A stretch of 64,000 nucleotides of DNA from Escherichia coli (GTDB taxonomy: Bacteria; Pseudomonadota; Gammaproteobacteria; Enterobacterales; Enterobacteriaceae): NCBI RefSeq assembly GCF_003018235.1, contig NZ_CP027437.1; one strand, 5' to 3'. Position 1 is the first letter of the stretch. The number at the start of each line of letters is the position of its first letter. Position numbers and translations under genes: made by a program. The notes beneath the pieces were generated by a model. The model was not told the origin of the DNA. It saw only the letters and a program-made list of their open reading frames with translations, and did no database searches. Below, piece by piece: positions 637 through 58,786 of this stretch.

Positions 637-1443
637 ATGTCTGTGGTAATTAGTGATGCATGGCGTCAGCGTTTTGGTGGCACAGCGCGTCTGTATGGTG
701 AAAAAGCGTTGCAACTGTTTGCTGACGCGCATATTTGTGTGGTCGGTATTGGCGGTGTCGGTTCCTGGGCGGCGGAAGCGCTGGCGCGCACAGGGATTGG
801 CGCAATCACGCTTATCGATATGGATGATGTGTGCGTCACCAATACCAATCGGCAAATTCATGCCCTGCGCGATAACGTTGGGCTGGCAAAAGCGGAAGTT
901 ATGGCGGAGCGTATTCGCCAGATTAACCCGGAGTGCCGTGTAACGGTGGTGGATGATTTCGTGACGCCGGATAACGTAGCGCAGTATATGAGCGTGGGTT
1001 ATTCGTACGTGATTGATGCCATTGATAGTGTACGGCCCAAAGCGGCGCTGATTGCTTATTGTCGGCGCAATAAAATCCCACTGGTCACAACCGGTGGCGC
1101 GGGTGGGCAGATTGACCCGACGCAGATTCAGGTTACCGATCTGGCGAAAACGATTCAGGACCCGCTGGCGGCGAAGTTGCGTGAGCGCCTGAAAAGCGAT
1201 TTTGGCATAGTGAAAAACAGTAAAGGTAAGCTCGGCGTGGATTGCGTGTTCTCTACCGAAGCATTGGTGTACCCGCAGTCAGACGGTACGGTGTGTGCTA
1301 TGAAAGCCACGGCGGAAGGGCCGAAGCGGATGGATTGTGCATCTGGATTTGGCGCGGCGACGATGGTGACCGCCACCTTTGGTTTTGTTGCGGTTTCTCA
1401 TGCGCTGAAGAAGATGATGGCGAAAGCGGCCCGTCAGGGGTAA
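637..1443 (+). CDS. tcdA: tRNA threonylcarbamoyladenosine dehydratase (ThiF/MoeB-like E1 enzyme, CsdL)
   Basis: 268-aa ORF with the nucleotide-binding motif VVGIGGVGSW typical of ThiF/MoeB-like proteins; adjacent to csdE-csdA. Confidence 0.9.
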   Translation: MSVVISDAWRQRFGGTARLYGEKALQLFADAHICVVGIGGVGSWAAEALARTGIGAITLIDMDDVCVTNTNRQIHALRDNVGLAKAEVMAERIRQINPECRVTVVDDFVTPDNVAQYMSVGYSYVIDAIDSVRPKAALIAYCRRNKIPLVTTGGAGGQIDPTQIQVTDLAKTIQDPLAAKLRERLKSDFGIVKNSKGKLGVDCVFSTEALVYPQSDGTVCAMKATAEGPKRMDCASGFGAATMVTATFGFVAVSHALKKMMAKAARQG

Positions 1444-1493: not shown

Positions 1494-1937
1494 TTAAACC
1501 TGCTTCGCCACAGCGATAATCGCCTCGCTTAACGCATTCAACCCCTGGCTGCGTGAGGCGCTAAGCTGCGCACGCAATCCCAGCTCATCAAACAATGTCA
1601 GCGGCGACTGTGCCTGCAATTCGGCGGCGGTTTTCCCCTCAACGGCAGTCAACAACACCGCCAGCAGGCCGCGCACAATGCGCCCTTCGCTGTCGCCAAA
1701 GAAGTGCATTTTACCGTTTTCAGCCACGGTATATCCCAGCCAGACGCGGTTTTCGCATCCGGCAATCTCTTTAGCCTGCGCTTTTAACTCGTCTGGCAAA
1801 GCCGGAAGCTGTTTCCCCAGCATGATCAACTGGCGATATTTATCTTCCCATTGCGTCAACGGTGCGAAGGTATTGCGTAACGTTTCTGCGGTTACGGTTG
1901 TGCCGAACGGATGTCCGGCGAATTGCGGGTTCGTCAT
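1494..1937 (-). CDS. csdE: SufE-like sulfur acceptor protein CsdE
   Basis: 147-aa ORF, SufE-family sequence; its start overlaps the csdA stop (ATGA coupling). Confidence 0.9.
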
Positions 1938-3577: not shown

Positions 3578-3783
3578 AAAAAAAAGCACCGCAATTAGGC
3601 GGTGCTACATTAATCACTATGGACAGACAGGGTAAATGTACAGGAAGTGAAAAAAGGTAGCTTTGCTACCATGGTCTGAATCGCAGACCAATTGCAAACA
3701 CAACAACACAACATCACAACCGTAAGCCAAAAGTTCACCAGAACACGCATTCCGATAAAACTTTTCGTTCCGGCTCAGGAAGT
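3578..3783 (-). ncRNA. gcvB: GcvB small regulatory RNA (Hfq-dependent, represses amino-acid transporter mRNAs)
   Basis: The reverse complement of this interval reads ACTTCCTGAGCCGGAACGAAAAGTTTTATCGG...GT-rich stretch TGTGATGTTGTGTTGTTGTGTTTG...terminator hairpin GCACCGCCTAATTGCGGTGC followed by a T-run, matching the gcvB sequence as I remember it; it is divergent from gcvA as expected and 206 nt long. Confidence 0.9.
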
Positions 3784-22001: not shown

Positions 22002-22367
22002 GTCGACAGGGAGTCAGACAACGAAGTGAACATCAGGATGATGACACTTCTGAAGGACACACCAGGATGGTGTTTCAGGGAAAGGCTTCTGGATGAAGCG
22101 AAGAGGATGACGCAGGACGCGTTAAAGGACACCTCCAGGATGGAGAATGAGAACCGGTCAGGATGATTCGGTGGGTCAGGAAGGCTAGGGACACTTCAGG
22201 ATGAAGTATCACATCGGGGTGGTGTGAGCAGGAAGCAATAGTTCAGGATGAACGATTGGCCGCAAGGCCAGAGGAAAAGTTGTCAAGGATGAGCAGGGAG
22301 CAACAAAAGTAGCTGGAATGCTGCGAAACGAACCGGGAGCACTGTGAATACAGTGCTCCCTTTTTTT
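22002..22367 (+). ncRNA. csrB: CsrB regulatory RNA (CsrA-sequestering sRNA)
   Basis: About 365 nt with no long ORF, carrying roughly twenty GGA-containing motifs (I count about 22 by eye, many as CAGGATG), ending in hairpin GGGAGCACTG-TGAATA-CAGTGCTCCC plus T7. The 5' end is placed from my recollection of the csrB sequence. Confidence 0.88.
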
Positions 22368-22412
22368 ATTCCTGCTATCCTTCGCGGCAGTTTTTCTTAT
22401 TGAGGTTGCTTT

Positions 22413-41118: not shown

Positions 41119-41790
41119 ATGCAGTACCCGATTAACGAGATGTTCCAGACCCTGCAAGGTGAGGGTTACTTTACCGGCGTCCCCGCTATTTTTATTCGTT
41201 TACAGGGATGCCCGGTCGGCTGTGCCTGGTGCGACACCAAACACACATGGGAAAAGCTTGAGGATCGGGAAGTTTCCCTTTTCAGCATTCTGGGTAAAAC
41301 GAAAGAGAGTGATAAGTGGGGAGCAGCAAGCAGTGAAGACTTACTCGCAGTCATCGGTCGTCAGGGATACACCGCGCGTCACGTGGTGATTACGGGTGGT
41401 GAGCCTTGCATTCATGATTTGCTACCACTGACTGATCTGCTCGAAAAGAACGGTTTTAGCTGCCAGATCGAAACCAGTGGTACTCATGAGGTACGCTGCA
41501 CACCGAATACCTGGGTTACCGTATCACCAAAGCTGAACATGCGCGGCGGCTATGAAGTGTTGTCACAGGCACTGGAGCGAGCCAACGAAATCAAGCATCC
41601 AGTGGGACGCGTACGTGATATTGAAGCACTGGATGAACTTTTGGCGACGCTGACCGATGATAAACCGCGAGTCATTGCACTGCAGCCGATTAGCCAAAAG
41701 GATGATGCCACACGATTGTGCATTGAAACCTGCATTGCGCGTAATTGGCGTTTGTCGATGCAAACACATAAATATCTAAATATTGCCTGA
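41119..41790 (+). CDS. queE: 7-carboxy-7-deazaguanine synthase (radical SAM)
   Basis: 223-aa ORF with a CxxxCxxC-type cluster (CPVGCAWC). Confidence 0.92.
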   Translation: MQYPINEMFQTLQGEGYFTGVPAIFIRLQGCPVGCAWCDTKHTWEKLEDREVSLFSILGKTKESDKWGAASSEDLLAVIGRQGYTARHVVITGGEPCIHDLLPLTDLLEKNGFSCQIETSGTHEVRCTPNTWVTVSPKLNMRGGYEVLSQALERANEIKHPVGRVRDIEALDELLATLTDDKPRVIALQPISQKDDATRLCIETCIARNWRLSMQTHKYLNIA

Positions 41791-42129
41791 TTAAACATTT
41801 ATAAGCGTTATAAATGGGTGGAACCTGTAAAGATTTCTACTCATTTATATTGTTTGTCGCCTCTGAAAACTCCTCCATTTTACCCATCCAGGGCTAATCA
41901 TTAGCATTCTCTACAAATTCTGCGGCATTAATTTTTCGCTGGAGTGAAAATTATTGCGGTAAAGTTTGGTAGATTTTAGTCGGTATAGGATTACTTTAAA
42001 TATTTAGCTTTTCAATCAATGAATTAAGTGCTCTTTAACATAATGGATGTGTTGTTTGTGTGATACTGTAAAGTTGGTAGATTGTGACTGGCTTAAAAAA
42101 TCATTAATTAATAATAGGTTATGTTTAGA
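41791..42129 (+). promoter_or_regulatory. AT-rich CRISPR leader
   Basis: About 340 bp of very AT-rich non-coding DNA ending ...TAATAGGTTATGTTTAGA immediately before the first repeat, the arrangement typical of type I-E leaders. Confidence 0.6.
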
Positions 42130-42438
42130 GAGTTCCCCGCGCGAGCGGGGATAAACCGGCCGTCGCCGGATCAGCCTGGCTATGCCAGCAGAGTTCCCCG
42201 CGCCAGCGGGGATAAACCGGACGAACAAAATAAAAACCAACTGAATGATGCGAGTTCCCCGCGCCAGCGGGGATAAACCGCGAACCCTTGAACCGATAAG
42301 GGCGCTGTTTTGGAGTTCCCCGCGCCAGCGGGGATAAACCGGATAGGTGTTACACATATGACCTGGCACTGGCGAGTTTCCCGCGCCAGCGGGGATAACC
42401 ATTCAGGTATGTTCAGGCCGGGCAGTTTCCCGCCCGGC
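42130..42438 (+). CRISPR. Orphan CRISPR array with type I-E 29-bp repeats (5 repeats, 4 x 32-bp spacers, plus a degenerate terminal unit)
   Basis: Repeats GAGTTCCCCGCGCCAGCGGGGATAAACCG at 42130-42158 (one C-to-G change), 42191-42219, 42252-42280, 42313-42341, and a degenerate 42374-42401; spacers at 42159-42190, 42220-42251, 42281-42312, 42342-42373. A further partial repeat-like GTTTCCCGCCCGGCC lies at 42425-42439 within a GC hairpin. No cas gene occurs in the window. Confidence 0.9.
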
Positions 42439-42447
42439 CTTCCTCAC

Positions 42448-43925
42448 TTACGCATTCGACCAGCTCTGGATCGAATCCGCATTCCCCAATTCCCCATGCA
42501 TCACTTCATACGATTTTTTCAGGATTACATCAGTATGTTTGGTTAACTCCTTGAAAATGCTTTTATTCATCGCGTCGTAGCGTTTGGCACTGTTCTCAAC
42601 AGGCATAAAGATATCTTTCACGCGAACCATTTTGTCGACAGCCGTTGCGTAATCCGGGTATAGCCCCAGACCTACCGCCGTATTAATCGCTGCCCCCAGA
42701 CTTGCACAACCATTAATGGCGTTACGGCGTGCCGGAAGGTTGAACACGTCGGCAAAAATCTGCATAAACAGATCGCTGTTCGAACCGCCGCCAGTAATGA
42801 TCACATGCTTTGCAAAGTGATTCATTTCATTACACATATTGTCGTAATTGTTCTTCAGCGTCAGGCCACGCTTTCCAGTATCGAACGATATATCCATGCG
42901 TAATCCATGCTGGAATCAAAGCCAATCATAATCCCGCGTTTGTACGGTTCCCACGGATTGGTCAGCCAGTCCAGCACCGTCATCAGACCATTACAGCCTG
43001 GCGGCACACAAGACGCTTTTTTGTTGAGCAAATCTTCCGGTGAAAGATCCTGTGCTTTGGCATCCTGAATTAACGACTCGCCTAACATGTCGCGTAGCCA
43101 GCTCACCGTCCACATGCCTTTGCGAATACCGTAACCTTCATACAGCAAGGTTTGCGGAATAGAAGACATAATCGGCCAGTACGCTACCGGATCTTTCGGT
43201 AGTAATTTGCCGTTCATCATCAACGCGATGTAAGTGCCAAGAGAAATTACCGCAGTTTCATCATCCAGTAACCCGGCTCCCAGTGCTTCTACCGGTTTAT
43301 CACTGGTGGTACAAACAACCGGCAGCCCAGCCGGGAAATGTGTCGCCAGCGCGGCTTGAGGAGTGATATGCCCAAGAACAGTGCCCGGCATTTGCACATC
43401 AAACAGCATATGACGGGGGATATTAAACTTCTCCATGACTGCGGCATCTTCACTCCATGCCCAGGTCTTATAATCCACCGGCCACTGACCAAAATAGTTG
43501 GCGATATTGTCTTTAAACTCGCCGGTTAAGCGATGCGTCAGATAACCTGAAAAAGAGGTGACATATGCCACGTCAGGATTCGTATGTTCGTAAGGGCGTG
43601 TAACGCGTGCATCCTGCCAGCTAATCAACGGCGCAGCTGGCGTGCCATCGGCTTTCAATAACGCACGGCAGCAACGGATGGATCCCAGACCAATACCGAC
43701 AATATCTTCTTTATTCCCGGCAAACTGACTCATCAAATCGTGACCGGCAAAACATAATGATGCCCATAAATCGTCGTCAGGATGTTCTGCGGTATCGGCA
43801 TCTGGCGTGTGCATCGGCTGCAATAAGCCTTTGCCTTCGCAAACCACATTACCTTCCAGATCATACATCACCACTTTTGTGCTCTGACTTCCGCCATCAA
43901 TCCCTATGATGTATTTTTTCGACAT
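42448..43925 (-). pseudogene. ygcE: FGGY-family sugar kinase split by an apparent frameshift
   Basis: N-terminal 354 codons (42861..43925) and C-terminal 149-codon ORF (42448..42897) are in different frames. The N-frame ends ...AWIYRSILESVA-stop and the other frame continues ...LTLKNNYDNMCNE...ITGGGSNSDLF, both matching conserved FGGY kinase regions, so the switch lies near 42861-42867 (GGCC run). Confidence 0.7.
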
Positions 43926-58298: not shown

Positions 58299-58507
58299 TG
58301 CGAGCAGCATTCCTGATTTTAAACGTGAACGCCGCTGGAAGAATCAACAGGTATAGAATGGTGTCGGGTGCTTGAGGCTGTCTGGCGTTAAGCATTCGCG
58401 AGGTTCCAGATGGACAAAAGCCCCAGGCGATATTTCTATCAACCTGAGGCCAGCGTTCGAACCCAAACAATTCGAATGTTAGTCTCTTCTTTGCAGGGAG
58501 GCAAGAC

Positions 58508-58660
58508 ATGCTGACAAAATATGCCCTTGTGGCAATCATAGTGCTGTGTTTTACAGTACTGGGATTCACGCTGATGGTAGGCGACTCGTTGTGTGAGTTG
58601 AGTATCAGAGAACGTGGTATGGAGTTTAAGGCAGTTCTCGCTTACGAATCGAAGAAGTAG
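58508..58660 (+). CDS. hokX: Hok-family type I toxin (small membrane-depolarising peptide), positionally the hokX/sokX locus
   Basis: 50-codon ORF absent from the ORF track (under 60 aa): [50 protein letters not shown], with a single TM helix, the Hok signature DSLCE and C-terminal AYES; Shine-Dalgarno GGAGG 6 nt upstream. The symbol is inferred from position next to cysH. Confidence 0.8.
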
Positions 58661-58786
58661 CCACCACGCGGGGGTAAAACCCCGCGTACTGAATTGTTAA
58701 AGTTTGGCCTCCTGCACCCCTTTTTTATACTCTGTTTCTGGTGGCATTGATTTCCTGCAGGCAAGGGAGTAATCATTTCAAACCCA

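Follow-up and report, generated by a model that had tools for sequence, protein, structure and literature searches.

An orphan type I-E CRISPR array with an intact leader between queE and ygcE of Escherichia coli

The window, by which we mean the whole 64-kb stretch of Escherichia coli DNA that was analysed, is colinear with K-12 in reverse orientation and runs through eno, ygcG, queE, the array described here, ygcE and yqcE, and then through cysJIH, hok/sok, iap and cysDNC. For a 15-kb core block, identity to the 5426 complete E. coli genomes nowhere exceeds 99.0%. The strain therefore belongs to E. coli broadly taken, and this collection holds no close complete relative of it. The array is bounded on the left by queE, so annotated in matching E. 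coli genomes, and on the right by ygcE, which is annotated as an intact gene of 1479 bp in K-12, WP4-S18, XJ6.1 and 18KM2445. In the window, ygcE carries a 1-bp deletion relative to K-12 near 42864/42865 (within 42861-42897, minus strand; GTGGC-CTGACG versus GTGGCGCTGACG), and the frameshift reflects either a pseudogene or a sequencing error. The small RNA genes CsrB (22011-22370, 381 bits) and GcvB (3578-3783, 199 bits) are also present, as is ordinary and expected in this chromosomal region. The features of the locus are the following.

41119-41790, plus strand: queE (ygcF), an ORF of 223 aa, left boundary of the CRISPR-II locus
41791-42129, plus strand: leader 2.3, 339 bp, beginning directly after queE and ending in ATGTTTAGA; GC content 0.32, against 0.51 for the window
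42070-42129, plus strand: integration module, the 60 bp of the leader nearest the array (mapped IHF and integrase anchoring sites)
42130-42158, plus strand: repeat R1, GAGTTCCCCGCGCGAGCGGGGATAAACCG, A-type with the loop variant GCGA (C14 to G)
42159-42190, plus strand: spacer S1, GCCGTCGCCGGATCAGCCTGGCTATGCCAGCA, the newest
42191-42219, plus strand: repeat R2, the consensus GAGTTCCCCGCGCCAGCGGGGATAAACCG with 0 mismatches
42220-42251, plus strand: spacer S2, GACGAACAAAATAAAAACCAACTGAATGATGC
42252-42280, plus strand: repeat R3, consensus GAGTTCCCCGCGCCAGCGGGGATAAACCG
42281-42312, plus strand: spacer S3, CGAACCCTTGAACCGATAAGGGCGCTGTTTTG
42313-42341, plus strand: repeat R4, consensus GAGTTCCCCGCGCCAGCGGGGATAAACCG
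42342-42373, plus strand: spacer S4, GATAGGTGTTACACATATGACCTGGCACTGGC, the oldest, at the trailer end
42374-42400, plus strand: repeat R5, GAGTTTCCCGCGCCAGCGGGGATAACC, terminal and degenerate
42415-42438, minus strand: GC hairpin, GGCCGGGCAGTTTCCCGCCCGGCC, with arms GGCCGGGC...GCCCGGCC, 9 nt downstream of the ygcE stop codon
42448-43925, minus strand: ygcE, right boundary, with its stop codon at 42448-42450 and its ORF split into 149 aa and 354 aa

Between 42130 and 42400, five type I-E repeats follow one another at a start-to-start distance of exactly 61 bp (all four intervals) and are separated by four unrelated 32-nt spacers. A preliminary description of this DNA had given coordinates, among them those of the four spacers, that all proved correct on re-check, and its assignment of the repeats to type I-E is borne out by alignment to the consensus: three copies are exact, R1 has a single mismatch and the terminal copy is degenerate, where none would be expected by chance. 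The window contains four matches to the consensus repeat at up to three mismatches, compared with none in 100 shuffled sequences, and no other copy occurs in the 64 kb. The repeat is identical in sequence to repeats in the K-12 I-E arrays, and its length of 29 nt comprises 28 nt plus the PAM-derived G, with which the spacers measure 33 nt instead of 32 nt. The repeats begin with GAGTT, the start that distinguishes the A-type repeat variant (Díez-Villaseñor et al. 2013, PMC3737337). The C-to-G change in the loop of R1 and the degeneracy of the last repeat, both remarked upon earlier, are present in the sequence. The former converts the tetraloop from GCCA to GCGA and leaves the 7-bp stem in place, with a folding energy of -15.1 kcal/mol for both versions. 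In R5, C6 is replaced by T and one A is missing from ATAAACCG; its stem is retained via a U-G pair (-12.2 kcal/mol) and the structure is the same as that of the consensus and R1. Folding of R1 and of the consensus thus predicts for R1-R4 a 7-bp stem and tetraloop of the kind that Cas6e recognises. No Rfam model detects the repeats, neither at the gathering threshold nor at E<=10, which is uninformative either way. Within their coding sequences, queE (41659-41680) and ygcE (43292-43309) contain short stretches that match the repeat in its 3' part (GATAAACCG...), probably by chance.

The leader fits its earlier description as an intact, AT-rich element of about 340 bp. From -1 to -60 it is 100% identical to the leaders of BL21 and K-12, and over its full length it shows only about ten differences in 339 positions from the K-12 CRISPR-II leader (four-strain alignment, mean column identity 94%). 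The identical part includes the positions at which, on the pCSIR-T reporter leader, an IHF site within 35 bp of the repeat and an integrase anchoring site at -50 to -53 have been mapped (PMC5224486), and the proximal 40-60 bp of the BL21-AI CRISPR2.3 leader are required according to Yosef et al., as cited in PMC3737337. The BL21 array at the queE-ygcE locus expands when Cas1-Cas2 is provided in trans from a plasmid (PMC5224486, PMC3737337), and leader 2.3 is similar across all strains, including those without cas-E genes (Almendros et al. 2014, PMC3903273). Because its leader is identical to those of BL21 and K-12 from -1 to -60, the array should still take up spacers if Cas1-Cas2 were supplied. 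A simple promoter scan called no sigma-70-like site on the plus strand of the leader.

The GC hairpin beside ygcE is identical in K-12, ATCC 8739, PCN033 and WP4-S18. On the strand that is sense for ygcE (minus) it folds into an 11-bp stem with a tetraloop at -27.5 kcal/mol, compared with -21.7 kcal/mol on the plus strand, and neither strand has a clear U-tract. It is probably a 3' hairpin or terminator of ygcE and not part of the array, and it possibly also ends the array transcript. The preliminary description had placed it accurately, at 42415-42438 by the ygcE stop codon, and had in addition read a partial repeat-like sequence in it, which is less likely to be a relic of a repeat. The reading as a sixth, decayed repeat was not adopted: the 10-nt identity with R5 lies 48 nt from R5, off the 61-bp register, the similarity is weaker with the terminal repeats of other strains, and the hairpin is identical in all strains examined. 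A simple terminator scan made one weak call, inside S3, which is taken as chance.

Between leader 2.3 and the terminal repeat near ygcE the array is uninterrupted, the 0.5-kb separator being absent, and the same single-array layout is found in WP4-S18, PCN033 and 18KM2445. In K-12, queE and ygcE enclose the six-spacer CRISPR2.3, 0.53 kb of AT-rich DNA and a two-spacer remnant, CRISPR2.2, which ends in a degenerate repeat (...GGGGATAACC) followed by ATTCAGGTATGTTCAGGCCGGGCAGTTTCCCGCCCGGCC; ATCC 8739 is arranged alike. R5 stands where K-12 CRISPR2.2 has its terminal repeat, and the sequences downstream of the two are identical. The mention, in the preliminary description, of a six-spacer array at this position in K-12 was right, although K-12 has the second, two-spacer array there too, and the last repeat, rightly called degenerate, can be specified as the conserved terminal repeat found at the end of K-12 CRISPR2.2. 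CRISPR-II is known to occur either as one array (CRISPR2.2-3) or as two arrays, CRISPR2.2 and CRISPR2.3, which lie 0.5 kb apart (Almendros et al. 2014, PMC3903273), and the site is annotated as CRISPR by NCBI in all annotated E. coli records examined. We are highly confident that the element is E. coli CRISPR-II in the form with one array (CRISPR2.2-3), that its repeats are of the A type and that the strain is without the type I-E cas operon.

A tblastn search with two sets of E. coli Cas-E proteins (K-12, and strain C4 for the other variant) found no homologue of Cas1, Cas2, Cas3 or Cascade in the 64-kb window. In cas-positive strains, the I-E operon and the first array are located between cysH/hok and iap. 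Comparison of the K-12 and strain C4 cas loci with the window by blastn identified, at this place, a short junction.

58729-58775, no strand assigned: empty cas site, a junction of 47 bp

The junction replaces the whole of cas3...cas2, the leader and CRISPR2.1 of cas-positive strains; in strain C4, the stretch that these 47 bp stand for begins 68 bp past hok and ends 11 bp short of the iap stop codon. It is situated 16 kb from the array, and 1292 of the 5426 complete E. coli genomes have this cas-less junction too. Since the 64 kb contain no cas-E genes and the iap-cysH site is empty, the element is classed as an orphan array instead of a CRISPR-Cas system; the earlier remark that no cas genes lie nearby thus applies to the entire window and to the canonical site. 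A complete hok/sok pair lies at 58366-58661, exactly where the cas operon would begin. Its sok scores 111 bits against RF01794 and its Hok ORF, of 50 aa, is 98% identical to that of strain C4; homology to K-12 ends at 58510, so that K-12 retains only the sokX part.

The origin of one spacer could be traced directly. S2 has a 32/32 protospacer with an ATG PAM in the IMG/VR contig IMGVR_UViG_2529293142_000021, where the protospacer directly follows the ATG with which a phrog_2600 gene of 241 aa starts. This gene adjoins two repressor-like genes and a replication O-like gene, and by this gene content the matched region appears to be the early region of a lambdoid phage, concerned with immunity and replication. 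On the same contig, 125 nt from the S2 site, on the opposite strand and likewise with an ATG PAM, the CRISPR-I spacer that strain C4 carries next to its leader has a match of 32/32 (the two 32/32 sites occupy 1362-1393, minus strand, and 1518-1549, plus strand, of the extracted contig sequence). Strain C4, which carries cas-E genes, is one of 31 E. coli genomes that match this second site. Neither GenBank phages nor the 5426 complete E. coli genomes contain the phage segment matched by S2.

The remaining spacers are placed by their counterparts in other arrays. S1 shares 28 nt with a spacer of 390 E. coli genomes that starts 4 nt earlier: in ATCC 8739 this spacer (1498-1529 of the extracted locus sequence) consists of TAAG followed by the 28 nt, and S1 consists of the same 28 nt followed by AGCA. 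Because the ATCC 8739 spacer reads TAAG before the shared 28 nt, the source of S1 had AAG, the canonical I-E PAM, just before S1. The two spacers appear to derive from the same source sequence in different lineages. Copying of S1 from the array of another strain was considered and rejected, as it would need both an indel and a mismatch at the repeat junction. The PAMs of S2 (ATG, in the phage contig) and S1 (AAG, from the shifted counterpart) both conform to AWG. S3 is found in the same register, with one mismatch (G/T), in the iap-side (CRISPR-I) array of strain R32_14_1F (1201-1232 of the extracted sequence), which suggests either that a favoured protospacer was acquired independently or that the spacer passed between arrays. 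S4 occurs with one mismatch in 36 complete E. coli genomes; comparison with the same locus elsewhere, as suggested in the preliminary description, located it at the same trailer-end place of the queE-ygcE array in WP4-S18, PCN033 and 7CC, the strains examined, and it is the shared ancestral spacer. None of the 5426 complete E. coli genomes has S2, or S1 in the register of the window, and therefore the spacer set is strain-specific, as had been supposed. The database search for protospacers that had also been proposed succeeded in part: beside the phage match of S2, no protospacer of S1, S3 or S4 was found in GenBank phages, PLSDB plasmids, IMG/VR, JGI metagenomes or GTDB species representatives, the only real spacer hit in PLSDB being a mis-filed chromosome with the ATCC-type spacer. 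The array as a whole has no match among the GTDB species representatives. The window contains no self-target, the best spacer matches being 12 nt long, and no spacer matches any non-CRISPR site in the 5426 E. coli genomes.

The sequence further bears on which cas operon was lost, and when. The ATG motif (written CAT) is sampled by Cas1-Cas2 of the O157 type and not of the K-12 type (PMC3737337), and hok/sok is intact in every strain except carriers of the E2 variant (PMC3903273). Taken together, the two PAMs (ATG and AAG), the A-type repeats and the intact hok/sok suggest that the lost cas operon was of an O157-like variant. Since insertions duplicate R1, the difference between the GCGA loop of R1 and the GCCA loop of R2 is as expected if no insertion has taken place since R1 mutated. 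WP4-S18 and PCN033, which share S4, have GCGA in all non-terminal repeats, whereas the window has it in R1 only; R1 would have gained this loop either by a parallel C-to-G mutation or by a recombination that replaced the leader and R1. In WP4-S18, repeats with the GCGA loop have passed through at least three insertions, and therefore this loop does not block adaptation.

The anatomy of the locus, its homology to that of K-12 and BL21, the lack of cas genes in the window, the S2 protospacer with its PAM and the spacers in common with other strains are direct observations; how events succeeded one another, which cas variant was lost and that the array is silent today are inferred, as follows. 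The four spacers would have been inserted singly at the leader-repeat junction by the Cas1-Cas2 integrase of an O157-type I-E variant, which sampled AAG and ATG PAMs, with at least one spacer taken from a lambdoid temperate phage. Both the cas operon and the array on the iap side are now gone from their only usual site. Without Cas1-Cas2 the array could not grow, and without Cas6e, Cascade and Cas3 any leader-driven pre-crRNA would be neither processed nor used, leaving a silent immune memory. The array appears not to have decayed, the stems of R1-R4 and the 60-bp IHF-guided integration module being intact, and were a cas-E module to be supplied or re-acquired, both acquisition and interference should resume. 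The array had been called probably frozen in the preliminary description; this agrees with the lack of cas genes in the window and at the cysH-iap site, and may be refined in that the array would be frozen only while cas is absent, its leader looking competent. It is conceivable, but quite improbable, that selection has kept the array intact as a landing pad for re-acquired cas-E modules. If so, and given that E. coli exchanges cas-E modules by recombination, a lineage regaining one would instantly have immunity against the lambdoid phage that S2 matches and could resume adaptation, and the identity of the integration module across cas-less lineages would be explained. The conservation of the 60 bp is within neutral expectation, as zero differences are not significant at a background divergence of about 1-2%.

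Four other explanations of the locus were weighed against an array orphaned by the loss of its cas operon. The array, or its leader-proximal part, may have been imported or reshuffled by homologous recombination, in which case the spacers would be silent on the encounters of this lineage and on the timing of cas loss. This agrees with the leader, which in the four-strain alignment is a mosaic of K-12-like and XJ6.1-like sites, with an R1 loop (GCGA) that is typical of the WP4-S18/PCN033 group next to GCCA in R2-R4, with the counterparts of S1 and S3 in unrelated strains and in a different array, and with the frequent exchange of CRISPR-Cas modules in E. coli (PMC3903273). However, no other complete genome has S2, or S1 in this register, and the 4-nt shift of the S1 counterpart indicates a separate acquisition and not a copied unit. 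We regard recombination as rather unlikely, though to be reckoned with, and it would change the history of the element, not its identity. Continued activity, in which the array would be served in trans by a type I-E cas operon at another genomic site or on a plasmid, has precedents at this locus, where K-12 CRISPR-II uses cas genes about 17 kb away and the BL21 array expands with plasmid-borne Cas1-Cas2 (PMC5224486, PMC3737337); our cas survey covers the 64-kb window and the canonical site and is compatible with an operon elsewhere, e.g. on a plasmid. Nevertheless, we hold it to be very unlikely, given that E. coli cas-E genes have been described only between iap and cysH (PMC3903273), the site that is empty here, and that the R1 mutation has not been propagated to the other repeats.

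More improbable still is a role independent of cas, be it as a regulatory RNA or through anti-cas spacers that block cas re-acquisition, as is reported of orphan I-F arrays. The proximal leader is invariant among cas-less strains, as such a role might entail, but this identity over 60 bp has no significance at the above background divergence, and no spacer matches either cas-E locus, the rest of the window or non-CRISPR sites in the 5426 genomes. A 14-nt exact match of S1 inside cas3 of strain C4 was considered as an anti-cas spacer and rejected, as it has no flanking similarity and is at chance level. That the element is no CRISPR at all, and instead coding sequence or another repeat family, can be dismissed: mechanically called ORFs do overlap the array (128 aa on the minus strand, 51 and 78 aa on the plus strand), but they have no family match, and invariant repeats, identical to the K-12 I-E repeat, around 32-nt units that differ wholly between strains are the opposite of a coding pattern. 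The possibility that the spacers are part of a coding sequence, for which the preliminary description had allowed, is thereby refuted.

The orphaned CRISPR2.2-3 array is genuine, yet as a remnant of former immunity to phages it is ordinary and of little import beyond strain typing. Its strain-specific spacers could serve as a lineage marker, and they bear witness to an earlier encounter with a lambdoid phage, which is targeted by other E. coli lineages too. The initial view of an orphan type I-E array with an intact leader and strain-specific spacers next to queE is supported by all of the tests that were run.

The literature already describes this locus, its form with a single array and its retention in E. 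coli strains without cas. The element resembles the published CRISPR2.2-3 (PMC3903273) in its queE-ygcE site, leader 2.3, type-2 (I-E) repeats, 61-bp period, terminal repeat and downstream sequence; only the spacer set differs, and the GCGA loop of R1 is absent from R2-R4. With CRISPR-II of K-12 MG1655 it shares the flanking genes, the terminal repeat, the ygcE-side hairpin and the leader from -1 to -60, whereas the repeats of K-12 are of the T type (GTGTT...), its locus comprises two arrays, a full cas-E operon lies about 17 kb off, and no spacer is common to K-12 and the window. BL21 is not known to carry cas genes, and its array is likewise an orphan. The BL21 queE-ygcE array, which served as the acceptor in acquisition assays with Cas1-Cas2 in trans, lies at the same locus and is identical in the proximal 60 bp of the leader; it differs in that its 13 repeats have the consensus loop, those at the leader end are of the T type and a remnant array stands apart from it, and in that its competence is established by experiment, whereas that of the window array is deduced from its leader. 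Almendros and colleagues are said to have described, in 2016, orphan I-F (CRISPR4) arrays of E. coli that carry anti-cas spacers. These are alike in that an array is kept without its cognate cas genes, but they belong to another subtype and to another locus (clpA-infA), and the array in the window has no anti-cas spacer.
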